DNA of 64,000 nucleotides from Mobula hypostoma (GCF_963921235.1 NC_086097.1:6386001-6450000), one strand, 5' to 3'; shown: positions 4,503-62,145, numbered from the stretch's first letter. Translations and numbers: made by a program. Notes: generated by a model from the letters alone, not told the origin.

Positions 4503-6497
4503 ACATAGAAATATAGAAAATAGGTGCAGGAGTTGGCCATTCAGCCCTTCGAGCCTGCACGTCCATTCAGTATGATCATGGTTGATCATCCAACTCAGAA
4601 CCCTGTACCAGCCTTCTCTCCATACCCCCTGATCCCCGTAGCCACAAGGGCCATATCTAACTCTCTCTTAAATATAGCCAATGAACTGGCCTCAACTGTT
4701 TCCTGTGGCAGAGAATTCCACAGATTCACCACTCTCTGTGTGAAGAAGTTTTTCCTAATCTCGGTCCTAAAAGGCTTCCCCTTTATCCTCAAACTGTGAC
4801 CCCTTGTTCTGGACTTCCCCAGCATCGGGAACAATCTTCCTGCATCTAGCCTGTCCAATCCCTTTAGGGTTTTATACGTTTCAATCAGATCCCCCCTCAA
4901 TCTTCTAAATTCCAACGAGTATAAGCCTCGTTCATCCAGTCTTTCATCATATGAAAGTCCTGCCATCCCAGGAATCAATCTGGTGAACCTTCTTTGTACT
5001 CCCTCTATGGCAAGGTGTCTTTCCTCAGATTAGGGGACCAAAACTGCACACAATACTCCAGGTGTGGTCTCACAAAGACCTTGTACAACAGCAGTAGTAC
5101 CTCCCTGCTCCTGTACTCGAATCCTCTCGCTATAAATGCCAGCATATCATTCACCTTTCTCACCGCCTGCTGTACCTGCATGTCCACTTTCAATGACTGG
5201 TGTATAATGACACCCAGGTCTCGTTGCACCTCCCCTTTTCCTAATCGGCCACCATTCAGATAATAATCTGTTTTCCTGTTTTTGCCACCAAAGTGGATAA
5301 CTTCACATTTATCCACATTAAATTGCATCTGCCATGAATTTGACCACTCACCTAACCTATCCAAGTCACCCTGCATCCTCTTAGCATCCTCCTCACAGCT
5401 AACACTGCCGCCCAGCTTCGTGTCATCCACAAACTTGGAGATGCTGCATTTAATTCCCTCATCCAAGTCATTAATACATATTGTAAACAACTGGGGTCCC
5501 AGCACTGAGCCTTGCGGTACCCCACTAGTCACTGCCTGCCATTCTGAAAAGGTCCCGTTTATTCCCACTCTTTGCTTCCTGTCTGCCAACCAATTCTCTA
5601 TCCACATCAATACCTTACCCCCAATACCGTGTGCTTTAAGTTTGCACACTAATCTCCTGTGTGGGACCTTGTCAAAAGCCTTTTGAAAATCCAAATATAC
5701 CACATCCACTGGTTCTCCCCTATCCACTCTACTAGTTACATCCTCAAAAAATTCTATGAAATTTGTCAGACATGATTTTCCTTTCACAAATCCATGCTGA
5801 CTTTGTCCGATGATTTCACCGCTTTCCAAATGTACTGTTATCACATCTTTGATAACTGACTCTAGCAGTTTCCCCACCACTGATGTTAGGCTAACTGGTC
5901 TATGATTCCCTGGTTTCTCTCTCCCTCCTTTTTTAAAAAGTGGGGTTACATTAGTCACCCTCCAATCCTCAGGAACTAGTCCAGAATCTAAAGAGTTTTG
6001 AAAAATTATCACTAATGCATCCACTATTTCTTGGGCTACTTCCTTAAGCACTCTGGGATGCAGACCATCTGGCCCTGGGGATTTATTTGCCTTTAATCCC
6101 TTCAATTTACCTCACACCACTTCCCTACTAACATGTATTTCCCTCAGTTCCTCCATCTCACTGGACCCTCTGTCCCCTACTATTTCCAGAAGATTATTTA
6201 TGTCCTCCTTAGTGAAGACAGAACCAAAGTAATTATTCAATTGGTCTGCCATGTCCTTGCTCCCCATAATCAATTCACCTGTTTCTGTCCGTAGGGGACC
6301 TACATTTGTCTTAACCAATCTTTTTCTTTTCACATATTTATAAAAGCTTTTACAGTCAGTTTTTATGTTCCCTGCCAGTTTTCTCTCATAATCTTTTTCC
6401 CCTTCCTAATTAAGCCCTTTGTCCTCCTCTGCTGAACTCTGAATTTCTCCCAGTCCTCAGGTGAGCCACTTTTTCTGGCTAATTTGTATGCTTCTTC
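4503..6497 (-). mobile_element. 5'-truncated CR1 LINE; ORF2 reverse transcriptase broken by frameshifts
   Basis: ORFs 6112-6333, 5005-6105 and 4595-4978: KSPGPDG, QHGF..GKSCLTN, YLDFQKAFDKVPH, SGVPQGSVLGP, KFVDDTK, RPHLEYCVQFW, RRLRGDLIE, FFTQRVVNLWNSLP; (ttctat)-type tail. Confidence 0.97.
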
Positions 6498-7019: not shown

Positions 7020-8064
7020 GATTCAAAGTACATTTATTCTCAAAGTATGTATGCAGTATACAACCTTGAGATTCAGCTTCCCATGAAACAAAGAAAACCA
7101 TGACACACATTCAAAGAAAACATCAACCCCCCCGCCACACTGTGCAAAAAAATGCACAAATGGCAAAAAAAAAAGAGTGAAAAACACAGGATATAATACA
7201 CCAAACTACAAAAGTTATTGAAAGTGTCCAGGCATATTCAGTTCAACTCAGCTCAGTTCAATCTAGTGCTGTATCGCTTGTCATCTGCTGGCCACTTTGA
7301 TCAAAACACGCTGGAGGAACTCAGCAGGTCGGGCAGCATCCGTGGAAACTATCAGTCAATGTTTCGGGCCAGAACCGAAATGTTGACTGATCGTTTCCAC
7401 GGATGCTGCCCGACCTGCTGAGTTTCTCGAGGGTGTTGTGAGTGTTGCTTTGACCCCAGCATCTGCAGAGTATTTTGTGTTTACGCTTTGATCAAAATTG
7501 CCCAAAATAGCAACAAAAAAAAGGAGTGACCAGAAAGCAGAAACATATCATAATGTGAATTATAGAATGCAATCCACAATCTGTGTCAATTAAACCTTCC
7601 CCAAGACCCAGGACTCCAGCAGAATCCCCCAACAGCATCGAGTGAGATGGAGAGAGAGGCTATTTGAATGCAGTGATGCTGCTCTGGCAGCAGTGAGTGA
7701 GAGGCTGATAGATGTTGCTGAACATCCCCTTGCCTTCCGCTCTCACTTCGATGATTTCAATCTTCCTTGATGCTTCAATTGGTAAGATCATAGAGTAACG
7801 GAGTCGATCATGGATTCACGATCTGTCTCCAAGTTTCTTGGCCTCAAGGCTGCATACTTTGTTTGAGACCACACCCTTGGAGACAGCAAAGCACCAGATC
7901 ACTCAATCGGCCCAAAGACATGACATCAAAATGTAAATTGTGGGCTCCAGCAGTAGCAGAACCACATTTGAAAGAAAACAAAGACAGAAAGTAAGAGAAG
8001 AAAAGCATCATGAACTGTCTGAGGGCTGTCGCCATCGGTCGCGTTGTTCACTGGTGCCATCTTG
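7020..8064 (-). mobile_element. Non-autonomous SINE-like element (CAAGATGGC head, LINE-like tail)
   Basis: gccatcttg at ~8056-8064 reads caagatggc on the minus strand. The tail complement ttcaaagtacatttatt..aaagtatgtatgcagtatacaacc matches the tails at ~12400-12457 and ~33100-33155. Confidence 0.65.
7307..7485. mobile_element. Penelope-derived hairpin mini-insertion
   Basis: About 60-bp inverted arms plus a ccagcatctgcaga tail; flanked by a 12-bp direct repeat ctttgatcaaaa (7295-7306 and 7486-7497). Confidence 0.85.
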
Positions 8065-13249: not shown

Positions 13250-13592
13250 GAAACAAAAGTAAGTCAACGTTTTGGGCTAAGTCTCTTCGCCAACTCTTCT
13301 TCCTATGGTCCATTCTCCTCTCCTATCAGATTGCTTCCTCTCCAGTCCTTTATCTCTAACACCCACCTGACTTCACCTACCTCCTTCTAGCTATTCTCTT
13401 TCCCCTCCCCGCTCCTTTTTATTCTGGCATCTTCCTCCTTCCTTTCCAGTCCTGATGAAGTGTCTCAGCCCAAGACATCGACTGTTTACTTTTTCCCACA
13501 GATGCTACTTGACCTGCTGAGTTCCTCTAGCATCTTGTGTGCGTGTGTGTGTGTTGCTTGGATTTCCAACATCTGTAGATTTTCTCTTGTTT
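13250..13592 (+). mobile_element. Older Penelope-like terminal repeat with degenerate hammerhead motif
   Basis: cagtcctgatgaagtgtctcagcccaagacatcgactg at 13447-13484, followed by gacctgctgagttcctc and the gatttccaacatctg tail. Confidence 0.8.
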
Positions 13593-14959: not shown

Positions 14960-15405
14960 GCTCTATGTAGAGTGGATGTGGAGAGGATATTTTCTGTAGT
15001 GAGAGAGTCTGGGACCAGAGGGCTTAGGAAAAGAATGGAGGGATGTCCACTTACAACAGAGATAAGGAGGGTCTCGGCCTGAAACGTTGACTGCACCTCT
15101 TCCTAGAGATGCTGCCTGGCCTGCTGCATTCACCAGCAACTTTTATGTGTGTTGCAGAGATAAGGAGGAACTTCTTTAGCCAGAGTGTGGTGAATTTGTG
15201 GAATCCATTGCCCTGTATGACTGTGGAGGCTGCCATTGGGTATATTTAAAGTGGAGGTTGATAGGTTCTCAATTAGTCGTGGCATCAAAGATTAGAGGGA
15301 GAAGGCAAGCGAATGGGGTTGAGAAGGATAATGAATCGGTAATGATAGAACGGTGGAGCAGACTTCATGGGCTGAATGGCCTAATTCTGCTCCTAAGGTC
15401 CTAAA
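14960..15405 (+). mobile_element. CR1 3' fragment interrupted by a Penelope repeat piece (15071-15154)
   Basis: CR1 3' motifs; the insert is flanked by 14-bp cagagataaggagg (15057-15070 and 15155-15168). Confidence 0.88.
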
Positions 15406-22378: not shown

Positions 22379-23390
22379 TATAGAAACATAGAAACATTGA
22401 AAATAGGGGCAGGAGTAGGCCATTCGGCCGAGTTTGAACCGCCATTCAGTATGATCATGGCTAATCATCCAACTCAGAACCCTGTACCTGCCTTCTCTCC
22501 ATACCCCCTGATCCCTTTAGCGACAAGGGCCATATCTAACTCCCTCTTAAATATAGCCAATGAACTGGCCTCAACTGTTTCCTGTGGCAGAGAATTCCAC
22601 AGATTCACCACTCTCTGTGTGAAGAAGTTTTTCCTAATCTCGGTGCTAAAAGGCTTCCCCTTTATCCTCAAACTGTGACCCCTCGCTCTGGAACAATCTT
22701 CCTGCATCTAGCCTGTCCAATCCCATTAGGATTTTATACTTTTCAATAAGATCCCCCCTCAATCTTCTAAATTCCAACGAGTATAAGCCTAGTTGATCCA
22801 GTCTTTCATCATATGAATGTCCTGCCATCCCAGGAATCAACCTAGTGAACCTTCTTTGTACTCCCTCTATGGCAAGAATGGCTTTCCTCAGATTAGGGGA
22901 CCAAAACTGCACACAATACTCCAGGTGTGGTCTCACCAAGGCCTTGTACAACTGCAGTAGTACCTCCCTGCTCCTGTACTCGAATTCTCTTGCTATGAAT
23001 GCCAGCATACCATTCGCCTTTTTCACCACCTGCTGTACCTGCATGTCCACTTTCAATGACTGGTGTATAATGACACCCAGGTCTCGTTGCACCTCCCCTT
23101 TTCCTAATCGGCCACCATTCAGATAATAATCTGTTTTCCTGTTTTTGCCACCAAAGTGGATAACCTCACATTTATCCACATTAAATTGCATCTGCCATGA
23201 ATTTGCCCACTCACTTAACCTATCCAAGTCACCCTGCATCCTCTTGGCATCCTCCTCACAGCTAACACTGCCACCCAGTTTCGTGTCATCCGCAAACTTG
23301 GAGATGCTGCATTTAATTCCCTCATCTAAGTCATTAATATATATTGTAAACAACTGGGGTCCCAGCACTGAGCCTTGCGGTACCCCACTG
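22379..23390 (-). mobile_element. 5'-truncated CR1 LINE (same subfamily as 4503-6497)
   Basis: ORF 22646-23368 KFADDTKLGG..RPHLEYCVQFW; near-identical to 4503-5527, with a short deletion near 22690. Confidence 0.97.
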
Positions 23391-23958: not shown

Positions 23959-24038
23959 AGGTCTCAGCCCGAAACGTCGACTGTACCTCTTCCTAGAGAT
24001 GCAGCCTGGCCTGCTGCGTTCACCAGCAACTTTTATGT
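23959..24038 (+). mobile_element. Penelope terminal-repeat fragment (3' half of hammerhead)
   Basis: ggtctcagcccgaaacgtcgactgtacctcttcctagagatgc matches 44009-44051. Confidence 0.85.
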
Positions 24039-24039
24039 C

Positions 24040-24270
24040 TGGTACCTGAGGTGAGTGACGTTCAGCAGCCTGATGGTTGAAGGGTAATAATGTTTCCTAA
24101 ACCTGGTGGTGTGGGACCTGAGGACTCTATACCTTCTTCCTGATGGTAGCAGCAAGAAGAGAGCATGGCCTTGATGATGGGTGCTACTTTCCTGTGGCAG
24201 CATACCATGTAGCTGTGCTTAATTCAGGGGAGGGCTTTATCTGTGATGGACGGGGCAATGTCCACTACTA
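24040..24270 (-). mobile_element. Rex1/Babar fragment
   Basis: cctgatggtagcagcaagaagagagcatggcc is the complement of the GHALFLLLPSG motif. Confidence 0.75.
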
Positions 24271-36961: not shown

Positions 36962-37480
36962 AAAACCATAAAACATAAGAGCAGAATTAGGTCATTCAAT
37001 CTATCAAGCCGCTTTACCTTAGATCTTGGCTGATCTTTTGCATTTTGTTGTTTGATTGTTTGTGGTTTCTGTATTGCTATATTTACGCTCTATTCTTGGT
37101 TGGTGCAGCTGTAACGAAACCCAATTTCCCTCGGGATCAATAAAGTATATCTATCTATCTACCTATTTATTAGCCCTCTCCACCTCATTCTCCTGCCTTC
37201 TCCCCACAACCTTTGACACACTGAATCTATCAACCTCAGCTATGATGTAGCCTCCACAGCCACCAGTGGTAACGAATTCCACAGATTTCCCAACCTCTGG
37301 CTAAAGAAATTCCTTCTCATCTTTGTTCTAAATGGACATCTTTCTAATCTAAGTTTGTGCTCTCTTGTCCTAGACTCATGCATCATAGAAAACATCCTCT
37401 CCACATTTACTCTACCTAGGCCTTTCAATATCTGATAGGTTTCACTGAGATCCTCCCTCATTCTTCTAAACCCCAGACAC
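36962..37480 (-). mobile_element. CR1 3' fragment with a nested LINE tail (~37037-37160)
   Basis: ORF 37240-37494 FRRMREDL.ETY..RNFFSQR.GNLWNSLP; nested piece ends gggatcaataaagta(tcta)n. Confidence 0.85.
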
Positions 37481-38074
37481 CTGATACTGGTCAAACATCT
37501 CTTTTCTTAAGGTAAGTTTCAGGTTGAAGTGTCCCAGACAAATTCTAAGGGGTGCTAATTGATTTGAAAACGAAATCAGTTCAATGTAAAGCCAGGATAA
37601 ATGATAGCATGCTTGATTTTTGCTCAGAAAATGTGAGCAGATGGTCAGAATTTTAGCAGAAAAGGCAAAATATAAGCTCAAGACAAACAGGAGTAACTTC
37701 GGGGGGAAAAAAAAGATTTAGTTAATCAGGTGCTGTTTTCACAAACCATCTCTTCTAAACCAACCTTCAGATGCTTACTGCATTCTAAATCTCTACTTAT
37801 CCATGAGTTTGATCTACAATTTTCCTGATGCATCCTGGGACATTATGTTCTGTTGATGAGATATGTAAATACAATAAACTTTTTGCAGGGGAGACATTCT
37901 AGAAAGTTTTGCAAAATCCAAAAATCTTAGGTATCCTTTTAAATTAAGTATGGAAGCCAAAACAATGGTTAATTGTACTGATTTATTAATGTCACCTGTA
38001 TCAATATACAGAAGAAAAACTTGTCTTACATTTTGCTTTAACAGATCAGATCATTGCACTATGCATTGAGGGTC

Positions 38075-38489: not shown

Positions 38490-39060
38490 CTTCTAGAGAT
38501 GTATGGTGGAAAGTATATTGACTGGTTGCATCATGGTCTGGTATGGAAACACCAAAGCCCTTGAATGGAAATGTGAACAAAAAGTAGTGGAAACAGCCCA
38601 GTGAATTATGGGTATAGCCCTCCCCACCATTGAGCACATCCAGACGGAGCAATGTTGCAGGAGAACAGAAAGCAGCGGCAAGGACCCCCAGCACTCAGAC
38701 CGTGCTGCTTCTCACCACTGCATTTAGAAAAAGATACAAGAGTCTCAGGACGCACACCACCAGGTTTAGGAATAGCTGTTAGCCCTCAACAATCAGGCTT
38801 TTGAACCAAAGGGAATAACTTCACTCACCCTATCACTAAACTGTTCACACATGGAATCACTTTCAAGTACTCTTCATCTCATGTTCTCGACATTTACAGG
38901 TTTTTCTTTGTTCTTTTGTATTTGTACTATTCATTTTTTGCACACTGGTTGTTTGTCCATTCTGTTAGGTGCAGTCTTTCATTGATCCTATTGTGTTTCT
39001 TGGATTTTACTGTGTATTCCCACAAGAAAATGAAACTCAGAGTTATATATAGTGACATAT
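38490..39060 (+). mobile_element. Rex1/Babar 3' fragment
   Basis: ctggttgcatcatggtctggtatgg..caccaccaggtttaggaatagc motifs. Confidence 0.75.
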
Positions 39061-39061
39061 A

Positions 39062-39493
39062 TAGAGCCATAGAACCATAGAACATTACAGCACAGAAACA
39101 GGCCTTTTGGTCGTTCTTGGCTGTGCCAAACCATTTCTCTGCCTAGTCCAACTGACCTGCACCTGGACCATATCCCTCCATACACCTCTCATCCATGTAC
39201 CTGTCCAAGTTTTTCTTAAATGTTAAAAGTGAGCCCGCGTTTACCACTTCATCTGGCAGCTCATTCCACACTCCCACCACTCTCTGTGTGAAGAAGCCCC
39301 CCCACTAATGTTCCCTTTAAATTTTTCCCCCCTCACCCTTAACTCATGTCTTCTGGTTTTTTTCTCCCCTTGCCTCAGTGGAAAAAGCCTGCTTGCATTC
39401 ACACTATCTATACCCATCACCATTTTATATACCTCTATCAAATCTCCCCTCATTCTTCCACACTCCAGGGAATAAAGTGCTAACCTATTCAAC
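39062..39493 (-). mobile_element. CR1 3' end (subfamily of 20575-22266)
   Basis: ORF 39241-39492 RMRGDLIEVYK..VNASRLFPLRQGEKK. Confidence 0.93.
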
Positions 39494-39704
39494 TTTTTTC
39501 TGTGCTTGATAACAAATTTACTTTGAAATTTGAACTAAACTAATCCCTTCTGCCTACACAATATGCAGGTCCTTTCATTTTCCTCACATTCACATGCCTA
39601 TCTGAATGTCTCGTAAAAGTCTCTAACGTCTCTGCCTCTACCAGCACCCCAGCCTCACATTCCAGACACCCACCCCTATCAGCATAAAAAAAAATTGCCT
39701 TGTC

Positions 39705-40005
39705 TTTCTTCCCAGACCTCCTGTCCCATGATCCTCTCATATCCCTTTTGCCAATCACCTGTCCAGCTCTTGGCTCCATCCCTCCCCCTCATGTCTTCTC
39801 CTATCATTTTGGATCTCCCCCTCCCCCTCCAACTTTCAAATCTCTTACTCACTCTTCCTTCAGTTAGTCCTGACGAAGGGTCTCGGCCTGAAACGTCGAC
39901 TGCACCTCTTCCTAGAGATGCTGCCTGGCCTGCTGCGTTCACCAGCAACTTTGATGTGTGTTGCTTGAATTTCCAGCATCTGCAGAATTCCTGTTTTTCG
40001 CGTTT
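39705..40005 (+). mobile_element. Solo Penelope-like terminal repeat (pLTR)
   Basis: Near-identical to 43845-44097, which lies downstream of the GIY-YIG ORF. Confidence 0.92.
39866..39901 (+). ncRNA. Minimal type I hammerhead ribozyme motif
   Basis: AGTC CTGACGA A GGGTCTCGGCCT GAAA CGTC GACT: both core boxes, stem I AGUC/GACU, GUC triplet; predicted cut after 39897. Confidence 0.8.
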
Positions 40006-40038
40006 AATATACATCTACTGGTAATGTGGAGTAAATGG

Positions 40039-40480
40039 GGTGTCCAGTGAGGGGTAACACCTCTGGTAAAGGGCTTGTCTTGTCTGTTCTGGGGCAGCTC
40101 ACTCACCTTTTGTCCCAACCAGACACTCAGCTCTCATCTGTGGTTCCAAGTAGGTGTTTGCACGTGACGGTGACCACACCCCAGTACACCACTTTAACAG
40201 GTGAATTAAACCAGGTGAGGGTAGCCAGCAGCCTCATACCCCAGTGAATTGGGGAAATAGCTCTCACAGCATGACAAGCTGGTGGAAAGGGCAGATGAGA
40301 TCTACAGTGAGAGCTAGTGACCAGCAAGGCTCTGTGCAGAGCAAAGTGCGTGACAAGGCACAGAAGACATCATGGTCATCCACTGCAACCAAGGAAGACC
40401 CCTGTTTGTGGCTCCTGTTCATACTTCTGGACCAGGACTTCTGAGGGCAAGAGAGTGGAACTACCCCAGTGCAATGGCTG
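40039..40480 (+). mobile_element. Probable RTE-related SINE/5'UTR remnant
   Basis: taaaccaggtgagggtagcc..cctcataccccagtga resembles RTE-type 5' UTR motifs (recalled, not aligned). Confidence 0.35.
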
Positions 40481-40918
40481 GGAGTCCTTGTGCAGGGTTC
40501 CATTAAGGTTAACTTGCAGGTTGAGTCTGTGGTGAAGAAGGAAAATGCAATGTTTGCATTCCCATTTCAAGTGTACCAGAATATAAAAGTTGATCGTGTG
40601 GATAGTCAGAGATTTCTTCCCAGGGCTGAAATGGGTAGCACGAGAGGGCACAGTTTTAAGGTGCTTGGAGGTAGGTACAGAGGAGATGTCAGGAGTAAGT
40701 TTTTTATGCAGAGAGTGGTGCGTGCGTGGAATGGGCTGCCGGCAACGGTGGTAGAGGTGGATACGATAGGGTCTTTTAAGAGACTCCTGGATAGGTACAT
40801 GGAGCTTAGAAAAATAGATGGCTAAGGGTAACCCTAGCTAATTTCTAAACTAAGTACATGTTCGGCACAGCATTGTGAGCTGAATGTCTGTATTGTGTAG
40901 GTTTTCTATGTTTTTATG
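40480..40918 (+). mobile_element. CR1 3' fragment
   Basis: [34 protein letters not shown] peptide. Confidence 0.9.
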
Positions 40919-41978
40919 TTTCACTTTAAAAACTCTCCCGCACAGGTTTCCTGTCATCATCAGGTACAATGGACAGCCACCACTGGTAATATAACTATTA
41001 TGATCATAGATTTTGGAGTAGTGGAGGTATAATTTGTCCATCTGTGCTGATCACCCCATCCTTGACTAAGCTGTTCCACCGTGAACATGATCTGTTATGA
41101 GTCAACATGATGCTTTCAGATCAGGTCATGCACAGCACAGACCTCCGCCGCACTGCTCAGGTGTGTTTCTGGGGTACAGGGGCTAGCGACCCTTGTGCCT
41201 GTTCTGTGTTCTATGCTGAGCAGCAGTGAACCATCTGATTGGCCTATCAGAGTTCTCTTTGGGAACTAGTTGACTTGATCAGCATTTCTGATCTGGCCAT
41301 TGTTCACCATTGCACTTAATAAAAAAGAAAGTTTGTACTGGTAACTTTGCTGTTTGCTGCTTCGGCTATGAGCATCTAGCTATGATGGATGATGAGAAAA
41401 CCACTTTCTCCCAATTTAAATAGCTTATTTTACTTTGAATGGGAATGGGAAACAGGTACCACCATCAACTGCCTGAACTACAGTTTTATTCCATTATATT
41501 AATTGAGACAAGTGTACAGTGTTGCAATTTGGGAGGACACCATCCAGGGTAGGACTTACACAGTGAGTGGTCTGGAAACGAGGAGTGCGGTAGAACAGAG
41601 AGATCTGGGAATACAGATCTGTAATTCATTGAAAGTGGCGTATTGGCTTTCATAAATCAATGTATTGAGTACAAGATTTGGAATGTTATGCTGAATTTGT
41701 ATAAGCTGTTGGTGAAGCCTAATTTGGAGTATTGTGTATTGAGTATTTCACACACATCTGCTCTCACTCCATCCTCCCACCACCCCACTAGGAATAGGGT
41801 TCCCCTGGTCCTCACCTACCACCCCACCAGCCTCCGGGTCCAACATATTATTCTCCGTAACTTCCGCCACCTCCAACGGGATCCCACCACTAAGCACATC
41901 TTTCCCTCCCACCCCCCGCTTTCCACAAGGATCACTCCCTATGCAACTCCCTTGTCCATTCGTCCCCCACCATCCCTC

Positions 41979-43249
41979 TGTCACAATGGTGGGGCATTGG
42001 AAGCAAGGGTGGACCCAAATGCAAGACACATCTTGTGAGGTTACGGTTTGGACTCCGAGCCCGAGACTGGGCAAGGACACAGTACCTGGGTCTTGCCTCG
42101 GGCTCGGACCCCAGAACCAGGCATGGACAAGACATGGGCTAGGGAGAGGAGGAACATGGAAAAACAGAGGCTCGATCTCGGGAAAGCAGGTACATGGAAC
42201 CATGGACACATACACAGAACACAGAGTCCGGACCCCTCCTTGGAAACAGGACTTAGGGCCGGGACTCACACACAGAACAGAGAGCCGGGACCCCTCCATG
42301 GGAACAGAACATAGGGCCGGGACTTATGACTTCCCCCTCCCCCCCACCGCGGGGCAACAGCAAGACGGCCTGACTTACCCCACGGAGGTGAGAACAAGAC
42401 AAGATAAGACATGACCCCCTGCCGAGCAACGGCAAGACAGCCTGACTTACCCCACGGAGGCGAGGACAAGACAAGACAAGACATGACCCCCCCATAGAGC
42501 AACAGCAAGACGGCCTGACTTACCCCACGGAGGCGAGGACAAGACAAGACAAACACCAAAGAACAACACAGTTCCTATCTAGCTCCAGCCATAGAACAAG
42601 ACCAAGGTGCAGGCGAGGGCTACAGACGAGGGATGGAGGCGAGGGGGCAGAGAAGGGACTCAGACACGGGAGTAGGACAGGAATCACAGACCGCCAGGGC
42701 CAGGACTTGACTAGCTACTCAGATGCCACTAGGGCCAGGACGTGACTTGGTACTCGGATCCCGCCAGGACCAGGACTTGACTTGGACGTGGTACTTGGAT
42801 GCCACCAGAGCCAGGACCTGGATGTGGTGCTTGGAACCGCCGGGTAGTGGCGAGCTCTAGACTCAGCCCAGGAACAGTAGACAGCGGCTCCTGATTCTCT
42901 CCGGCAGGTTAACCGACGGACCCACCTTGATGAGGAAACCTTGCAGGCTCGCTTCGGCGAGGTAACTGGACAGGGTTGCTCCGGTGAGGAAAGGCGAATT
43001 ACCGGGACTCGCTTCGGCAGAGACTAGGCTTGCTCCGGCCAGATGACATCGGCACACCGTACCTTTGATGACTTTGCAGACGCTCCCGCCCGAACAGCTG
43101 AAAGCCGAAGACTATAAACTACCAGTTCAGCCGAGCATTAATTGCCTCTATTCACCAAAGCCGAGGGACACGGGAAAACAGGGAATCAACGGTCCAGATC
43201 GTAACATGAACAAGGTAAATTTAAAGGGACCCCGATCCAGACCATGACA
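41979..43249 (-). mobile_element. Solo LTR with internal minisatellites
   Basis: TGTCA...TGACA ends and 5-bp TSD ccctc (41974-41978 and 43250-43254); interrupts the Penelope ORF. Strand is inferred. Confidence 0.9.
42205..42845. repeat. Three tandem arrays (~59, ~72 and ~37-40 bp units) inside the LTR
   Basis: cacagaaca.agag.ccgg.acccctcc x2; gcaagacggcctgacttaccccacggagg.gag.acaagacaagac x3; gccagggccaggac.tgac x4. Confidence 0.85.
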
Positions 43250-43995
43250 CCCTCCCCACCCATCTCCCTCCTGGCACTTATCCTTGTAAGCGGAACAAGT
43301 GCTACACATGCCCTTACACTTCCTCCCTCACCACCATTCAGGGCCCCAGACAGTCCTTCCAGGTGAGGCGACACTTCACCTGTGAGTCGGCAGGGGTGAT
43401 ATACTGCGTCCGGTGCTCCCGATGTGGCCTTTTATATATTGGCGAGACCTGACGCAGACTGGGAGATCGTTTTGCTGAACACCTACGCTCTGTCCGCCAG
43501 AGAAAGCAGGATCTCCCAGTGGCCACACATTTTAATTCCATGTCCCATGTCCCATTCTCATTCTGATATGTCTATCCACGGCCTCCTCTACTGTAAAGAT
43601 GAAGCCACACTCAGGTTGGAGGAACAACACCTTATATTCTGTCTGGGTAGCCTCCAACCTGATAGCATGAGCATTGACTTCTCAAACTTCCGCTAATGCC
43701 CCATCTCCCCCTCGTACCCCATCCATTATTTATTTATATACACACATTCTCTTTCTCTCTCTCTCCTTTTTCTCCCTCTGTCCCTCACTATACCCCTTGC
43801 CCATCCTCTGGGTTTTCCCCCCTCCCCCTTTTCTTTCTCCCTGGGCCTCCTGTCCCATGATCCTTTCATATCCCTTTTGCCAATCACCTGTCCAGCTCTT
43901 GGCTCCATCCCTCCCCCTCCTGTCTTCTCCTATCATTTTGGATCTCCCCCCTCCCCCTCCCACTTTCAAATCTCTTACTCACTCTTCCTTCAGTT

Positions 43996-44031
43996 AGTCC
44001 TGACGAATGGTCTCGGCCCGAAATGTCGACT
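43996..44031 (+). ncRNA. Minimal hammerhead ribozyme motif (partly mutated)
   Basis: AGTC CTGACGA A TGGTCTCGGCCC GAAA TGTC GACT; the stem II closing pair and the ACGU palindrome are altered. Confidence 0.65.
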
Positions 44032-44789
44032 GTACCTCTTCCTAGAGATGCTGCCTGGCCTGCTGCGTTCACCAGCAACTTTGATGTGTGTTGCTTGGAG
44101 TGTATTGTGTATAGTTCTGTTCACTGACCTTCAGGAAAGGTATCAATAGGATTAAAAAAGTACACAGAAAATTTACAAAGATGTTGCCAGGACTTGCAGA
44201 CCTGAGTAATTGGGAAATGTTGAATAGGTTAGGTCTTTTTCCCTACAGCATAGGAGAATGAGGGGAGATTTGTTAGAGCTATACACAATTTATGAGAAGT
44301 ATAGGTAAGGTAAGGTTGTGATGGAAATTCAGATGAAGAGTAGGCTGAAGAGCCTGTTTCTGTACTGTATGACTCCATCATTTTATGAATCAGATTTGGA
44401 CCAATTAGATCTCTGAACCATCTCCAAATAAAGATTGCCTGTTCACATCTTGGCCTGGATAATTGAATTGCAGTTTTATTTAATTTGCAATTAATCAAAC
44501 CTTGAACATGATTGGTGAGTGCAAAAATGCCCAGCTACTGAATCATGAATTAAAAATTTGTCTTGTCAGATTAATAATGTATTGAATGAATGGGCATTGA
44601 CACTGATAAAATGATACGTAATGGTCATTCTTGTCAACAATGTACATAAAGTATAAATCTTTAAAAATAGGAACTGACTTCTTCCCTTAACTTCTAATTC
44701 TTCTATTACATTAAATAAGAAAAGGAATGACATTTAGTAGATATGGATAAATGTGATAATATATTGATTTATCTCTGCAAATTAAACAA

Positions 44790-45235
44790 ATGCCACTACG
44801 CAGGATTGGAAAAAGCTGCAGAGGGTTGTAATCTTAGCCAGCTCTATGGGCACTAGCCTCCCCAGCATCGAGGGCACCTTCAAAAGATGATACCTCAAAA
44901 AGATGGCATCCATCAGTAAGAACCTTCATCAGCCAGGATTTGCCCTCTTCTCATTGCTACCATCAAGGAGAAGGTACAAGAGCCTGAAGGCACACATTCG
45001 ATGCTTTAGGAACAGCTTCTTCACCCTCCCCGTCAGGTTTCTGAGTGGACAATGAACTCAAGAACACTACCTCACAGTTTTATTTGGCTCTCTTTTGTAC
45101 AACTTATTTAATTTAATTATATGTAAATGTCTAATTGAAATTTATAGTTTTCATTATTATGTATTGCAATGAACTGCTGCTGCAAAACAACAGGTTTCAC
45201 AACAAATGCCAGTGATATCAAATCTGATTCTGATT
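44790..45235 (+). mobile_element. Rex1/Babar 3' end
   Basis: caggattggaaaaagctgcag..tgccctcttctcattgctaccatc..ggaacagcttctt..ctgattctgatt tail. Confidence 0.88.
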
Positions 45236-45628
45236 TGGGAAATTCACCAGTGTAAAATTGGGACAGTCATTGTAATTCTGTGAGAGAGGCCTGACAGTAT
45301 TTTGTGATTCACTTTACTCTGGTTGCGACCATTGAATTCTCACTGCTGTGAACCTTTGTAGAAGATTTGGAAGCTGAGTGATAAGAGACTGAAGAGTAAG
45401 ATAGACATGTTTGTCTCAGGGGCTGTCATTGAATCTGTAGAGCTTATAGTATTCCGCCATTGCTGGATACCAAAGAGAATGTCCCACAGCTCTAAACCAT
45501 GATCTCTCTGCAGAAACTTCCGATCAGTTTTCTACCCTGTCCATGTCCCCTGATTGCAGCTCAAACAATTCTACGCAGAAGGCATATCCAGAACATATCA
45601 CTGAATACAAGCCCACAACTGCAGATTA

Positions 45629-45849
45629 TGGTAACACACACAAAACGCTGGAGGAATTCAGCAGGTCAGGCATCTATGGACATGAATAAAGAATCAACAC
45701 TTCAATTCAAGACTGAAGAAGGGTTTCAGGCCAAAAAGTCAACTGTTCATTCATGTCGATAAATGGTGCCTGACCTGCTGAGTTCCTACAACATTTTGTG
45801 TGTGTTACTCTCGATTTCCAGCTTCTGCACAATTTCTCATGTTATATGT
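45629..45849. mobile_element. Penelope-derived hairpin mini-insertion (degenerate)
   Basis: Inverted arms aacacacacaaaa..tcagcaggtcaggca / tgcctgacctgctga..ttttgtgtgtgtt; TSD tgcagatta (45620-45628 and 45850-45858). Confidence 0.8.
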
Positions 45850-46019
45850 TGCAGATTAAGCTCTTCACTTTACTAAAGCCTCATCAAAAAGGAGAGAGTG
45901 ATATCAGGACCTTCAGCATTATCTTTAAGGGGACTTTCACTTTCTCTCCCTCACTGCAGGTGACATTTTGGAACATCTTTGCGATTGTTCTCTCTTCAGT
46001 TGCCTCTCCTCATAACTAC

Positions 46020-46400
46020 TGACCATAAGACCGTAGACCATAAGGTATAAGAGCAGATTGAGGCCATTTGGCCCATTGAGTCTGTTCTGCCATTTCATCA
46101 TAGAAACATAGAAAACATACAGCACAATACAGGCCCTTCAGTCTACAAAGCTGTGCTGAACATGTCCCTACCTTAGAACTACCTAGGGTTACCCATAGCC
46201 CTCTATTTTACTAAGCTCCATGTAGCCATCCAGGAGTCTCTTAAAATATCCTATCGTTTCCGCCTCCACCACCGCCGCCGGCAGCCCATTCCACAGACTC
46301 ACCACTCTCTGCGTAAAAAAACTTGCCCCCGACATCTCTTCTGTACCTACTTCCAAGCACCTTAAACCTGTGCCCTCTTGTGGCAGCCATTTCAGCCATT
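46020..46400 (-). mobile_element. CR1 3' ends (two tails)
   Basis: FFTQRVVSLWNGLP..FKRLLDGYM peptide; catagaaacatagaaa tail complement. Confidence 0.9.
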
Positions 46401-46680
46401 TCAATCGGATGGCAGAGAGTAAGAAGCCATTCCAGAGTCATTGACTGTGTGTCTTCAGGCTCCTGTACCTCCTCCTTGATGGTAGCAATGAGAAGAGGGC
46501 ATGTCCTGGGTGATGGGGATCCTTGATGACAGGTGCTGCCTTCTTGAGGCATCCCTCTTTGAAGATGTCCTGGATGCTGGGGAGTTCTAGTGGCCATGAT
46601 GGAACTGGCTATGGTCACAAACTGTCTGCAGCTTATAGTATATCGATCCTGTGCAGTGCACACCTCCCATACAGGCATTA
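46400..46680 (-). mobile_element. Rex1/Babar fragment
   Basis: gatggtagcaatgagaagagggcatgtcctgggtgatgggg. Confidence 0.85.
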
Positions 46681-47052
46681 ACTATGAATAGTTTTTCGGG
46701 AGTCATCTAAATTAATTGGCACACTCTTTGTCCTCGCAACATCATTTACAATTTAACAGATTTGATTCAACAATTTCCTTCAAGGTGACATTCTTTAGTC
46801 AGTTTATCAATGCAAATCCCACAGTAAAATTGCCTGTGCAGAATTCTGACCAGTGATTCAAGTCCATTAGAACAAGATTATTTCACACTGTTTGACTTTT
46901 CATCAGAGTGTTGAAGGAGCAACCAAATAAAATAATGCAACATGTGGTAAAACAAAAATTTCTTATTAGCTGTTTAGCAGGATGTGCCTATTCTCATTGC
47001 TACCATCAAGAAGGAGGTGCAGGAGCCTCCTACACACACACACACACATATA

Positions 47053-47087
<35 letters not shown>

Positions 47088-47206
47088 CGCATGTATCTGT
47101 GTCTATATACACATTTAAAAATATATTTCTTATTGTAATTTTTTGTTTTTTATTATGTATTGCAATGTACTGCTGCCATAAAACAAACATATTTTATGAC
47201 GTGCCA

Positions 47207-47360
47207 GGATGGCACGTTAGCATAGTGGTTAGCACAATGCTTTACAGTACAGGCGCCACAGGTTCAATTGCCACTGCTGCCTGTAAGGGTTTTGTAGGTT
47301 CTCCCAGTGATCTTGTGGGTTTCCTCCGAGTGCTCGGGTTTCCTCCCACAGTCCAAAGAC
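47207..47360 (+). mobile_element. tRNA-derived V-SINE (3'-truncated)
   Basis: A-box-like tagcatagtggttagc, B-box ggttcaattgcc, and V-domain tgggtttcctccg.gtgctc.ggtttcctcccacagtccaaagac. Confidence 0.85.
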
Positions 47361-48034
47361 CTGGTTCCTGACCCTGATTCTTATTCTATATTGTAAGCAG
47401 AGTAAAATGGCTTTGTGGGCTCCCAAAAGAGACTGAAGGTTCCCTTGATGGTAAAGTTTTTTTGCAGCAGTATTGTCCTCTCCTTGTGCTCTTGGCTGCT
47501 GTTGGTCTGTGGAGTGTGTAAGCAGTCAATCAGCATTCCATTAAGAAAGCACTCAAGGGCTTTAAAACAAAGTGCTCTTCATTGCTCAGTGCATTCATAT
47601 CGCAATGAGTCTTATTTCCAATTACTATTCACATCTGAAATTTGGAGTGACACCATGACAGTTTAATAAAGAGAACATATGTGCTGAAGATTATATGAGA
47701 ACTACAGGCAATGATGTGCTGTAATAACAAATGTCTTACAAATGAAAGAACAAAATATAGAGAGCAGAAATTTGTCTTTGATTACTCTTACAAAATGTCT
47801 GATGTTGTCCTCCTTGATCAATACTAAGAAAATTAAAGGTTATATTATGGACATTTGAAGACACACTCTATGTTTTGGGAGCAGCTTCTTCCCGTTTGCC
47901 ATCAGATTTCTGAATAGACAATGAACTCATGTATACTAATTCACATTTAATTTTCTTCTTGCTCTCTTTTTGCACTACTTACTTTACTTTCTATAAATGT
48001 TATTTCTATTTAAATGTATATTATAGACCACTGT

Positions 48035-48580
48035 AAGTCAGGGTGTTGTGTCCTAGCTGTCTCGGTACGTAATCCTGGGCAGTACGATATGGAGAACAAG
48101 CTGCTGCCCATGTAGCAAGCTCCCCGTCTTCACGCATCTGATGAACCCAGAGGAACAGCAGAGACCACTGCAGTTTGCCACCAGCAGCATCGCAGGTCTT
48201 GCTTTCAGTGTTGAACTCAACATTGGTCTGATATGGGGAGTCCAGATCCAGATATTTCTCTTGAGGTTTATTCCTGAAGCTTTCCCCATGAGTGGGTATA
48301 TCCACAAGGCAGTGGAGGTTTGAGATCAGAGATTTTCTTCACCTAATTGAGCTGCCAGCCAAGGCTGATGAGTGCCATCTGCAAAAGGTGACTGGTTTTA
48401 AGGTGCCTGTATCCTGCCTTTGCCCCTTCTCCTATCAATAGAAATGACTCCACCAGGCTTAGTAGCTAAGCCACATGTGAAGGCCAGGAGCTAGACTTGG
48501 TTGTCAGGGGCTACTTGAGGCACACACTATTGGGAGCATTTAGTAGGTAGTGGGAGTTAATCCCCTCTACCCTGCCCCCA
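48035..48580 (-). mobile_element. RTE/Vingi-related SINE-like element
   Basis: G-rich 5' end and the cacaaggcagtggaggtttga.atcagag..ttttc motif typical of such SINEs (recalled, not aligned). Confidence 0.5.
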
Positions 48581-49347
48581 GCTATTAAACTTAGTTTTGA
48601 TTCTGATTTTCCTTTATAGTGGAATTTTAAATTATGAGGAATAGCTTCAGAGTAAGAAATCTCTGAATTAAGGCAGAGTTGAGGAGGAATATTTTCTACA
48701 TTGAATCTTTGAAATTTTACCCAAGGGAGCTGTGGAAATACATTCAGGACTTACAGCAGGTAGGCAATCTTCTGATGAACATTGCCTTATTGAATGGCAG
48801 ATCAAGCTCTGTCTGTATGAATCTTGCTACTACTTCACGTGTACTTATGTATCAGAAACAGAACTTCTCTTTATAGACTCCTGAAAAATATAATTCTGAT
48901 CAGAAAGCACTGAGGATTAGAGTGAACAATATCTACTTTTTGACTAACAGCAAAGACAGGGGATTTCTCGGAGGGAAAAACTGAAAGAAGTTTTCTGACT
49001 GTTGTCATTGGTGTCCTTGAGAAGAAACCCAATTGTAACTAAACTGCGGTTATAAACACAAGAGATTCTGCATGTGCTGGAGATCCAGAGTAACGCACAC
49101 AGAAACACGAGGAAATCTGCAGATGCTGGAATTTCAAGCAACACACATAAAAGTTGCTGGTGAACACAGCAGGCCAGGCAGCATCTCTAGGAAGAGGTAC
49201 AGTCGACGTTTCAGGCTGAGACCCTTCGGTCAGGGCTAACTGAAAGAAGAGCTAGTAAGAGATTTGAAAGTGGGAGGTGGAGGAAGAGATCCGAAATGAT
49301 AGGAGAAGACACCAATTTCAAATCTCTTACTAGCTCTTCTTTCAGTT

Positions 49348-49383
49348 AGTCCTGATGAAGGGTCTCGGCCCGAAACGTCGATT
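49348..49383 (+). ncRNA. Minimal type I hammerhead ribozyme motif
   Basis: AGTC CTGATGA A GGGT-CTCG-GCCC GAAA CGTC GATT; predicted cut after 49379. Confidence 0.82.
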
Positions 49384-49504
49384 GTACCTCTTCCTAGAGA
49401 TGCTGCCTGGCCTGCTGCGTTCACCAGCACTTTTTATGTGTGTAACACACACAGAATGCTGGAGGGATTCAGCAGGTCAGGCAGTATCTATTGAAATGAA
49501 TAAA

Positions 49505-49542
49505 CAGTCAACGTTTCGGGCTGAGACCCTTCATCAGGACTG
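49505..49542 (-). ncRNA. Minimal type I hammerhead ribozyme motif
   Basis: Minus strand reads CAGTC CTGATGA A GGGT-CTCA-GCCC GAAA CGTT GACTG; 5-bp stem I and a GUU triplet. Confidence 0.8.
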
Positions 49543-50944
49543 GGAAGAAAAGGAATAAGAAGGTGGGGGTGAGGAGAAGGAGTTGATTGATGAAACCAGG
49601 TGGGTGGAGAAGGGGCTGAAGCTTGGAGGTGATAGGTGAAAAAGGTAAAAGGCTGGAGAGGAAGGAATCTGTTAGGAGAGGAGCGGACCATGGGATAAGG
49701 GGAAGAAGGAGGGGCATCATGGGAGGTGATAGGCAGATGAGGAGAAGAGGAGAGGTGTGAGGGAAGCCAGAATGGGGAATTGCAGAGATGGGAAGAGGGA
49801 GGGGAAAAATGACCAGAAGTTAGAGAAATTGATACTCATGCCATCACGTTGGAGGCTACTCAGACAGAATAAGAGCTGTTGATCTTCCAAGCCGGGAATG
49901 GCCACATTGTGGCAGTAAAGGAGGATATAAACTGACATACCTTCTTACTTTGTTCCGCCTCCCCCCCCCCCAACACCCACCTGGCTTCACATATCATCTT
50001 TTAGCTTCTGATCCTTCCCCTCTCCCCACCTTCTTATTTTAGCTTATTCCCCTTCCTTTGCAGTGCTAATGAAGGGACTCAGCCCAAAATGTTGACTGTT
50101 CATTCATTTCCATAGATGCTACCTGACCTGCTGAGTTCCTCCAACGTTCTGTGTGAACAGCAGTTGTGGATTATTTATCTCAACTCTGCCGGAGGGAGAA
50201 GGCCTGGGAATTTCCTCAGAGCAGCTCATTGTGTTGTTTCTTCAGTGGATTAGGAGAAGCTCCAGGGAAATATTCTGACCTGAGAGCTTTCTGTCAGAAC
50301 AAAAACAACATAGAGACGATTATATATCTTGGAACCACCAAGGGACTTTCCTATTATTCTCCCTGAATCAGCACTCTGGTGGCTCAGTTTAAATTTAGGT
50401 GGTTTTAATTCCAGCCTCCCCAGAACTTTCTATCAAAGATCCAAAACAAGATAAAAGAAATGTTGGGTTGTAATTACTGCAGGATGCTTGCTCCCACTAC
50501 GGAATGATGTGGCATTCAGTTAACAATGTGCAGGCACCAAACGTTATAGAATAGCATTCGAACCACATTCCTACTCAGAAGGTAAACATAATCCTCTGAG
50601 AATAAGCCTAGATTAAAGGTATTCTTTGTATATGCTAACACTGAATTACTCCGCTACAATGACAGGTCCATGTTTTTTGACCACAAGGAATACCTCTTCA
50701 TATGTTTCAGCTTTTAGGCTGACAGAAGCAATCATACTCTCAATTAGTGTACATGTTACAGAACTGCATATTATAAGCAAACGAGCTTTACTTTTGACAA
50801 AGGTTGCAAGCCCACTTGTTTCAAAGCAAATGCTGAAGGAGCAAAATTTGCCTTTGGGCTCCAGCACTGAATTGGTGTCTGGACATTGCTGGTTTCAGTC
50901 CCCCCTTGGTCCCAAAAAGGATTGCACAAAAAAGAAGAAAGGAA

Positions 50945-51508
50945 GTAAACTCCCACTGGGTTCTTTGGCTGCGTACATCTAGGGAATACACACTCCAGTC
51001 CCGGCAAACCATTGAGATTGAGATGGCTCTCCCACTCCAAATCCCAGTTTGTGTGAATACAGTGTAATTTGCAACCCCGTTACAACTCAGTGCCAAGTAT
51101 TAACAGACAGTACATTGCATAAGATTAAAGGAATTATATTTATCAATCTTAACTAAAGGGTTAGTAAAGAAAAGAAAGAAAAAAACAAAAAGGGCCCATT
51201 ATAATTAAACTGTCAAATGTGCACAAGTTGGAGCTCAACTCTTCCAAAAATTCATTTTCACCGATCCTCAATCTCAGCACCTGGCTCCACCGGGTCAAAT
51301 CCTATGACCGTTTTTCTCCAGCGTCTTCTCCCTTCATCTCTCATCGCACAAAAAAAAAGCCCAAGGCCAACCTTCCTAATTGGATGTCACACATTCCTTA
51401 TCATCCCTTATTTTAAACAATAACCTGAACAGGCTGAAAACAGAAGAGACTGCTCTCACAGAACTGCTAAATGAAATACATACAGAGTAGCATTAAAATT
51501 GTGTTACA
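50945..51508 (-). mobile_element. Gypsy-type solo LTR
   Basis: Minus strand starts tgtaacac and shares atttcatttag.ag and gagctc.aac..tgtgcaca..t.gac motifs with 56516-57306. Left boundary approximate. Confidence 0.75.
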
Positions 51509-61129: not shown

Positions 61130-62145
61130 ATAAATCTACAGGCCAGGCCAGAGAGAGGCTTTCAACTTGGGCAGTAAGGGACACCTCAGGGATGTGTGCT
61201 TAGCCCACTGCTCTACTCACTCTACAGCCATGACTCTGTGTGTAGGCACAGCTCAAGTGCCATCTATAAATTTGCTGACAATGCAAATATTAGTGAAGTT
61301 TCAGATGTTGACAAAAGGGCATACAGGAGTGAGATTTATCAGCTAATTGAGTGGTGTTCCAGCAGCACCCACTGCCCTCAGCATCAGTAAGACCAAAAAA
61401 CTGATTGTAGATTTCCGAAGGGGTAAAATGAGGAAACACACACCAGTTCTCACAGTGGGATCAAAAGTGGGAAGAGTGAACAATTTCAAGTTCCTGGATG
61501 CCAATATCTTTGGGAGTCTATCCTGGACCCAACATATCAAAGCAGCTACATAGAAGTCATGACAGTGGCTATAATTCATTAGGAGTTTGAGGACATTTGG
61601 AATGTCATCAAAGGCACTTGGAAATTTTTACACATGAACTGTGGAGAGCATTCTAACTAACTGCATCATTGTCTAGTCTGGGTGGCTACTGCACAGGATG
61701 CAAATAAGCTGCAGAGCACTGTAAACTTAGGCACACAAAATGCTGGAGGAACTCAGCAGGCCAGGCAGCATCTGTGAAAAAGCGTGAACAGTTGATGTTT
61801 CAGGCTGAGACCCTTCATCAGGTCTTTGGTGGGTGCTGCTTTTGATTTCCAGCATCTGCAGATTTTCTTGTGTTTATAAACTTTGTCAGCTACATCATGG
61901 GAACTAGTCTCCATAGTATTCAGAACATCTTCAAGGAGTAATTCTTCAAAAACCCCATCACCCAGGTCATGCCTTGTTCTCATTGCTACCATCAGGAAGG
62001 AGGTACAAAAGCCTGAAGGCACAGACTCAACGATTCAGGAACAGCTTCTCCCCTCTGCTATCCGAGTTCTGAATGGACAATGAATCCATGAACACTACTG
62101 CATTACTTTTTTATCTGTATTTTTGTGCTACTTACTTATTTTAAG

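Follow-up and report, generated by a model that had tools for sequence, protein, structure and literature searches.

The 64,000-nucleotide (nt) stretch of Mobula hypostoma DNA analysed here (GCF_963921235.1, NC_086097.1:6386001-6450000; hereafter the window, with positions counted from its first letter) contains four near-complete hammerhead motifs and a series of decayed or shortened ones, all lying in copies of one repeat. Two of the repeat copies are joined to remnants of an open reading frame (ORF) with a GIY-YIG endonuclease end. As described below, the repeats are very probably the 3'-terminal modules of an endonuclease-bearing Penelope-like element (PLE), each with one minimal type I hammerhead motif, for which we infer cleavage from published work.

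Hammerhead motifs and the element that carries them

Direct reading revealed that the four near-complete sites have a 36-nt block in common, AGTC-CTGAYGA-A-(12-nt stem-loop)-GAAA-YGTY-GAYT. The initial annotation had placed them at 39866+, 43996+, 49348+ and 49505-; all were present, the last at 49506-49541 on the minus strand, and a decayed or 5'-cut copy was found at each position given for degenerate or partial motifs (approximately 13448, 15071, 23960, 45712, 49201-, 50062 and 61790-). Written as RNA, the block consists of AGUC, CUGAYGA, an A, a stem-loop of GGGU, a 4-nt loop and GCCC, and then GAAA, CGU (UGU in one copy), C or U, and GAYU. In standard hammerhead numbering, it provides C3 to A9, an unpaired A, a stem II closed by G10.1-C11.1, and G12-A13-A14, followed by a helix III reduced to the palindrome ACGU, with A15.1 and U16.1 around CG, and by H17. 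Stem II has 4 base pairs (bp) and a 4-nt loop, and the copy alignment showed a stem I of 4 bp plus a fifth pair that differs between the subfamilies (U-G or C-G).

The CUGAnGA and GAAA core boxes are intact at 39866, 43996, 49348, 49541- and 61825- and broken in the copies at 49199-, 13448, 50062 and 45709, and the bulged A before stem II is present in all copies. The 10.1-11.1 pair is G-C at 49348 and 49541-, G-U at 39866 and U/C at 43996. The cleavage triplet is GUC at 39866, 43996 and 49348 and GUU at 49541-, with predicted cuts at 39897/8, 44027/8 and 49379/80 on the plus strand and at 49510/49509 on the minus strand. The helix III tetrad is ACGU at 39866, 49348 and 49541- and ACAU at 61825-. 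Among the features first attributed to every complete motif, the extra A, the NUH triplet, stem I and the core boxes held, whereas the ACGU palindrome is replaced by AUGU in the 43996 copy.

The 43996 copy does lie about 300 nt downstream of a GIY-YIG ORF, as initially annotated, and this ORF is broken. The frame of 43225-43563 encodes a cysteine-rich linker followed by the GIY and YIG motifs, and it matched the Pfam GIY-YIG family (E = 2.4e-4) when the right frame was taken with the TGA read as X; a Pfam search of six raw stop-to-stop ORFs of the window gave no match. The reading frame is broken in four ways, by the TGA at 43450, a frameshift near 43548, the insertion at 41979-43242 and a 5' truncation at about 41736. 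The last position is taken as the truncation point because the ORF remnant starts abruptly there, where it abuts another repeat. The insertion consists largely of tandem arrays with periods of 58, 73, 35 and 27 (TRF) and has an imperfect, C-rich direct repeat on either side. An intron of the PLE was considered for this 1.26-kb interruption and set aside in view of the imperfect flanking direct repeat and the tandem-array content.

The nearest proteins, at 91-93% identity, are uncharacterised predictions of Hypanus sabinus and Mobula hypostoma. In the homologue P0007, a single chain matches RVT_1 with 22.7 bits (below the cutoff of 29.6) and GIY-YIG with 23.2 bits (above the cutoff), and the homologue P0021 also exceeds the Pfam cutoff for GIY-YIG. 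The whale-shark homologue carries RVT_1 and GIY-YIG in one chain, which is the PLE-specific architecture. A copy of the second subfamily retains the last ~40 codons of the GIY-YIG ORF at 49816-49944 (-), matching P0002 residues 327-368 in tblastn, about 275 nt before its own hammerhead; the ray motifs thus lie 250-300 nt past the ORF stop. ORF remnants are attached to 2 of the 13 repeat copies, and most PLE copies in the window are 5'-truncated. The name 'terminal repeat' is right for the PLE family as published, and what the window itself shows is the 3'-terminal module of 5'-truncated copies.

Upon comparison of 39817-39967 with 43947-44097, we found direct repeats with 97% identity. We considered whether the 39866 and 43996 copies are the paired terminal repeats of a single element and rejected this; they are regarded as separate insertions because 39993-41735 is occupied by other repeats without PLE coding sequence. 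One other abundant repeat was observed at 40445-40825 (+), 46189-46437 (-), 39241-39534 (-), 37240-37506 (-) and 41450-41735 (+); it holds ORF-like fragments with the common motif FF.QRVV..WN.LP and no Pfam match, and the truncated PLE copy abuts one of its fragments. Direct repeats of ~750 nt with 94-96% identity were also present at 4550-5315 and 22429-23178, 17.9 kb apart.

An nhmmer profile built from three copies detected a repeat unit of ~190 nt in 13 copies in the window at E < 1e-4. The alignment divided them into a young subfamily (39782, 43911, 49312-, 49312+, and the shortened copies 15065 and 23960, in which nothing 5' of stem II is present), an older second subfamily (49542-, 61825-, 13447, 49976 and 45712) and a third group, the palindromic pair at 7304-7448. 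Since it starts at stem II, the 15065 copy is unable to form the ribozyme. The motif is enriched in the window because its bearers are copies of one repeat family and not independent occurrences, and the number of motifs therefore reflects transposition and not independent origin. The copy c39 (nhmmer E = 1.4e-65) is a 295-nt insertion that tracks the 3' untranslated region (UTR) of the ORF-bearing copy for ~300 nt in the alignment to 43700-44100, and it has an inverted match to 49110-49228 at 95%. The 7304-7448 pair, which is absent from the initial annotation, forms a hairpin; this gave a sub-threshold Rfam match to mir-1791 (49.5 bits against a gathering score of 75; E = 1.7e-7).

Public contigs of unknown or probably DNA origin from four runs were aligned to 43700-44100 and yielded 4,590, 5,317, 8 and 25,858 matching records. 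These numbers indicate great abundance of the repeat family in no fewer than three of the organisms behind the runs. The summed contig depth climbs in steps towards the 3' end, the profile to be expected when copies of a single retroelement are truncated at varying 5' positions.

Table 1. Features of the PLE copies and their hammerhead motifs in the window. Bits refer to the covariance model built in this work.
Feature	Position	Strand	Remarks
Two inverted tail copies joined inside stem II	7304-7448		only 3' half of hammerhead; nhmmer 7376-7304 (-), 7371-7448 (+)
Decayed copy	13447-13561	+	G12>A and ACAU; 17.1 bits
Copy 5'-truncated inside hammerhead	15065-15157	+	begins at stem II; model positions 15-33
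Copy 5'-truncated inside hammerhead	23960-24048	+	begins at stem II; model positions 15-34
5'-truncated PLE 3' module c39	39698-39992	+	without ORF remnant; long 3' end (TTCCAGCATCTGCAGA extension, motif at 39971)
Minimal hammerhead	39866-39901	+	core intact, GUC, ACGU; G-U at 10.1-11.1 (CpG C>T); 48.9 bits
PLE ORF remnant, linker between reverse transcriptase and endonuclease	41736-41978	+	tblastn to P0002 residues 148-225, 79%
Foreign insertion of ~1.26 kb splitting the PLE ORF	41979-43242	+	tblastn gap between residues 225 and 224
Broken GIY-YIG endonuclease end of PLE ORF	43243-43696	+	in-frame TGA at 43450; frameshift near 43548
3' untranslated module of the 43996 PLE copy	43697-44097	+	short 3' end form
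Minimal hammerhead	43996-44031	+	300 nt after ORF stop; private U at 10.1 and AUGU; 48 bits
Strongly decayed copy	45712-45810	+	nhmmer, alignment; 10.9 bits
PLE 3' module c49a	49133-49312	-	nhmmer E 6.6e-56; hammerhead 49199-49239, one-base insertion in CUGAYGA box; 38.4 bits
PLE 3' module c49b	49306-49449	+	head-to-head with c49a
Best hammerhead copy	49348-49383	+	every core and stem position as in family consensus; 50 bits
Second-subfamily 5'-truncated PLE copy	49439-49944	-	tail-to-tail with c49b; keeps C-terminal end of ORF
Hammerhead	49506-49541	-	intact core, G-C at 10.1-11.1, ACGU, GUU triplet; 43.4 bits
Decayed second-subfamily copy	49976-50155	+	hammerhead 50062-50097 with G5>A, G12>A
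Copy with intact core boxes	61733-61825	-	helix III ACAU and broken stem I, both CpG transitions; 37.4 bits

Chance controls and covariation in distant relatives

The pattern CTGAYGA-N13-GAAAYGTY had four exact matches in the window and eight with at most two mismatches, compared with a mean of 0.79 over 100 shuffles, none of which reached eight. A structural descriptor, which demanded at least 4 bp in stem I and at least 3 bp in stem II, a palindromic 15.1-16.1 and an H17 other than G, matched the window at 39865, 49347 and 49542- and gave 0 matches in each of 20 shuffles of 252,591 nt. The 43996 copy fails this descriptor because of its U at 10.1 and AUGU instead of ACGU.

The covariance model that we built, run with filters off, gave 33 window matches at E ≤ 10. 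Six were strong, starting at 49346+, 39864+, 43994+, 49504-, 49199- and 61788- in descending order of score (Table 1), and five of these six belonged to the training set of the model. Weaker matches were found at 13446+ and 45707+, and those at 15069+ and 23959+ were partial, covering the model from position 15 onwards only. As for the check with type I hammerhead models proposed in the initial annotation, the Rfam models gave no match, and our own model recovered all listed sites except 50062, which was seen by the core pattern (two mismatches) and by nhmmer.

Distant relatives were collected by scanning metagenome contigs with an alignment of 16 homologues, which yielded 80 loci encoding PLE ORFs with 35-50% identity. 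A core-only pattern, in which the two boxes and their spacing were fixed, revealed 34 motifs in these loci. They form about four sequence families, whose stems are unlike those of the ray, while the bulged A, the 12-nt stem-loop II, ACGU and GUC are alike. The covariance model found 66 matches at E ≤ 0.01 (34 of which belonged to its training set), 51 in sense and 15 in antisense orientation. Among the 57 loci with at least 250 nt past the projected ORF end, 46 had a sense motif and 11 had none. The distance of the motif past the GIY-YIG ORF end had a median of 101 nt, with outliers of 493 and 878 and three values of -1, which are ORF matches that read on.

In an ungapped alignment of 32 distinct rows, which were selected without use of the stems, the inner three pairs of stem I change on both sides (UA/AU/CG; CG/GC/UA/UG; GC/CG/GU/UA). 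Paired cells amounted to 79.5%, compared with at most 45% when partners were slid, and the covariation score was 0.319 as against 0.154 in shuffles, with 0 of 500 shuffles reaching it. The inner helix III pair is C-G in 25 of the 32 rows. Covariation of the stems, the lack of which had been named at the outset as part of a refutation, was thus observed for stem I across PLE families, with about four families contributing. The spacing of the motif and its place after the GIY-YIG ORF (~100 nt in the metagenome loci, 250-300 nt in the ray) are kept across 35-50% identity, which provides fresh comparative support that PLEs need the motif.

Two observations concern the opposite strand. A canonical type I hammerhead (56 bits) lies antisense at 1992-2036 (-) of L019, a contig encoding a PLE ORF. 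The 15 antisense minimal hammerheads occur in L003, L006, L022, L030, L035, L046, L050, L056, L057, L058, L069, L070, L071, L072 and L074, which suggests that inverted partner copies adjoin many PLEs.

Conservation, decay and insertion ends

We compared the window subfamilies by the mean identity over 12 pairs of window copies. The 36-nt motif was 82% identical, the 36 nt upstream of it 59%, the next 18 nt after it 60% and the tail block described below 74%. Between the two least decayed copies of the two subfamilies, the motif was 92% identical. In the public contigs, the similarity of records from other subfamilies breaks off precisely where the motif begins on its 5' side, at 43996-43998. 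Within the young subfamily, a site was counted as variable when its share was at least 10% in some contig run; among the sites listed, there were at least four in the motif, at least four in the 36 nt upstream and at least six in the 36 nt downstream. Two of those in the motif are private changes of window copy 43996, where the contig majority restores G10.1 (G for T at 44008, 99% of depth) and ACGU (C for T at 44024, 73-93%). The initial annotation had held that a lack of excess conservation over the flanks would speak against the motif. An excess was evident between the subfamilies, whereas inserted copies of the young subfamily show no clear protection of the motif.

The eight ungapped window copies differ from their majority line by 33 substitutions, 13 of which are CpG transitions at three CpG sites. 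The only three CpGs of the motif are C11.1/G12, C15.2/G16.2 and C17/G1.1. Because these coincide with catalytic or pairing positions, methylation-driven transitions would strike such positions in many copies, and this gives a simple reason for the quick death of dispersed vertebrate copies. Agreement with the family consensus throughout the core and the stems is limited to 49348+ and 49541-. Judged by sequence, the majority of the window copies have been inactivated, for the most part through CpG decay of catalytic positions, and potentially active ribozymes are far fewer than the copy counts would suggest.

Thermodynamic folding of 40-nt motifs kept stems I and II in four of five copies. Dimer folding with ViennaRNA returned only trivial strand-swapped duplexes and was uninformative on a double hammerhead. 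The 323 nt at 49130-49452, which comprise c49a and c49b, are predicted to fold into a hairpin of ~130 bp (-243.9 kcal/mol, z -28); weak below-threshold Rfam matches there (MIR844, mir-3156) merely reflect this hairpin.

The repeat copies end in two forms. In the short form, the copy stops ~70 nt past the predicted cut, at a short TG run, and in the long form it extends ~25 nt further, through TTCCAGCATCTGCAGA, to ~95 nt past the predicted cut. Both forms were seen in public contigs (loose ends at 44093-44097). PLE insertions therefore end downstream of the ribozyme site and not at it, which fits the internal start of reverse transcription described for the Anolis PLE in the excerpted text of PMC11167929. 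The tail block ~22-57 nt past the cut (44050-44085 and equivalents) is the region that was 74% identical between subfamilies. No consensus secondary structure was predicted for it (0 pairs), and a role in template recognition would be a guess.

Proposed cleavage, rival explanations and known systems

In the excerpts of PMC4209133 and PMC6765202 used here, a single motif is described as unable to close helix III. Two copies, present in one transcript of tandem elements or in two RNAs, could pair their ACGU tetrads to form a double hammerhead. This would cleave after GUC or GUU, probably aided by the PLE's own protein. Cleavage would free unit-length element RNA from longer transcripts, perhaps for circularisation, and would leave 5'-OH and 2',3'-cyclic phosphate ends. 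Inserted copies would not be under selection and would decay.

Several points weigh against the reading of these repeats as PLE 3' modules with a cleaving hammerhead. The GIY-YIG match of 43225-43563 scored 21.8 bits, under the cutoff of 22.6. No reverse transcriptase (RT) sequence was found in the window by tblastn with P0002, P0005 and P0007, an absence from which the copies are taken to be 5'-truncated. The PLE 3' end after GIY-YIG remnants bears out the annotation as Penelope-like terminal repeats, but the window has no complete unit of terminal repeat, ORF and terminal repeat. Covariation draws on about four related sequence families and thus on few independent events. Most window copies are changed at positions that the family keeps, and the 40-nt folds contain an additional, competing helix of 4 bp between the GAYG box and CGUC. 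The best copy, 49348+, is predicted to be sequestered in the ~130-bp hairpin, held as a duplex in read-through RNA. In the published record as excerpted, single minimal motifs had no detectable cleavage and were poor in vitro even as dimers (PMC4209133). The ribozyme of the Anolis PLE cut only with the element's protein present, its catalytic mutants did not affect insertion in vitro, and RNA-seq ends were absent at the cut site (PMC11167929).

The silence of Rfam is a further such point. Its hammerhead families gave 0 matches at the gathering score and none at E ≤ 10 in the whole window, and no hammerhead match at E ≤ 10 in the 91 nt around the best copy. In the same search, the canonical type I hammerhead in L019 was found with 56 bits, while the minimal motifs of L002, L008 and L026 were missed; this control explains the silence but does not remove the point. 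The consensus of RF00163 (Hammerhead_1) and the window motif have the CUGAnGA and GAAA boxes, the GUC cut site and a 4-bp stem II in common. They differ in stem I (6 bp in RF00163, 4-5 bp in the window motif), in the bulged A before stem II, which RF00163 lacks, and in the helix III palindrome, of 8 nt in RF00163 and 4 nt in the window motif. Rfam misses the window motifs because its type I model expects the longer helix III. Since the Rfam models miss the minimal PLE class completely, genome annotation needs a dedicated model, for which ours can serve as an example.

A chance hammerhead resemblance inside an unrelated repeat would agree with the lack of an Rfam match, and the copies in the window, all from one repeat, lend no independent support by their count. 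Such a resemblance is nonetheless hardly credible, as 46 of 57 distant PLE loci have the same architecture, with different stems, in a fixed position behind the GIY-YIG ORF, the descriptor searches of shuffled sequence were empty and stem I covaries. The motif may instead be kept mainly as a site for binding or folding with the PLE protein, for example in template recognition, with cleavage incidental or vestigial. The protein dependence of cleavage and the unchanged insertion of catalytic mutants in Anolis Poseidon favour this, as do the bulged A and the exact 13-nt spacing of the boxes, alike in ray and metagenome families in 39 of 39 pattern matches, although the pattern itself fixed the spacing. 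We consider it unlikely, as invariance falls on the catalytic core, the stem covariation is of the kind that a hammerhead demands, and the hammerheads found in this location in fungal and plant PLEs are fully active or canonical (PMC4209133, in excerpt).

It could further be argued that the copies without an ORF form a non-autonomous element, either a retrozyme of the type without long terminal repeats (non-LTR) or one resembling a short interspersed element (SINE), which would have its tail and hammerhead in common with PLEs and depend on their proteins for mobilisation. In favour of this, ORF remnants adjoin just 2 of the 13 repeat copies, and the excerpted preprint 10.64898/2026.07.22.740005 derives vertebrate non-LTR retrozymes from PLE terminal repeats and found them in its one cartilaginous fish. 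However, the window has no head-to-tail tandem array of the unit (TRF on 39000-51000 gives four unrelated arrays), the copies are dispersed or inverted, c39 tracks the 3' UTR of the ORF-bearing copy for ~300 nt, and the contig depth rises in steps toward the 3' end as variable 5' truncation would have it. This origin is accordingly quite unlikely, and we retain the PLE 3' module as the preferred explanation.

The initial annotation had also suggested that intact copies could cleave any transcript reading through them. We regard this as a weak proposition, given the inactivity reported for single motifs, the need for protein in Anolis and the hairpin around the best copy. A stronger form of it, in which a young, possibly active batoid PLE lineage has seeded the genome with very many hammerheads, two near-intact sense copies within a single host transcript might pair by their ACGU tetrads and cut it, and CpG methylation would act as an off-clock for each copy, is very unlikely. 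The four-copy cluster at 49133-50155 might serve as an example. If it were true, ribozyme-dependent host RNA processing would be a side effect of PLE load.

Compared with known systems, the window motif closely resembles the minimal hammerhead ribozymes of metazoan PLEs described by Cervera and De la Pena in 2014 (PMC4209133). As excerpted, these have a type I topology with a 4-5 bp stem I, an unpaired nucleotide between A9 and 10.1, G10.1-C11.1 and a helix III with palindromic 15.2-16.2. They lie in the terminal repeats of PLEs, occur as many dispersed single motifs from truncated elements and include opposite-strand pairs 100-700 bp apart; the terminal location, dispersed single copies and opposite-strand pairs are likewise seen in the window. 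Slight differences were present: the window motif has a stem II of 4 bp with a loop of 4 nt, where 7-8 bp are described for the Schistosoma families, and the hosts given are bony fishes, coelacanth, Xenopus and reptiles, whereas the window host is a cartilaginous fish.

The Poseidon element PAc of Anolis carolinensis (PMC11167929, in excerpt) likewise has a hammerhead in the terminal repeat, and its insertions end at an internal 'tail' site and not at the cut; the two alternative 3' ends of the window PLE can be set beside this site. The PAc ORF begins within the ribozyme, at stem II, whereas the window motif follows the ORF stop of truncated copies by 250-300 nt. Animal non-LTR retrozymes (excerpts of PMC7229834 and of the preprint 10.64898/2026.07.22.740005) also have type I hammerheads related to PLE terminal repeats, and most of their copies are non-coding. 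They are head-to-tail tandem arrays giving circular RNAs, whereas no such array of the hammerhead unit was found in the window, where neighbouring copies are inverted.

Judged by titles and abstract openings, no paper returned by the literature search deals with rays or skates, hosts which the species tables of PMC4209133 and the preprint may nevertheless cover. The preprint, in its excerpted part, includes a single cartilaginous fish; it reports retrozymes from this class, and PLEs from five classes of vertebrates. The new biology is accordingly small, a host lineage added to an association of ribozyme and retrotransposon described in 2014, and the finding is real, correctly interpreted and ordinary. 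Every feature of the window motif matches the published minimal hammerheads of metazoan PLEs, and what is new is one more host lineage.

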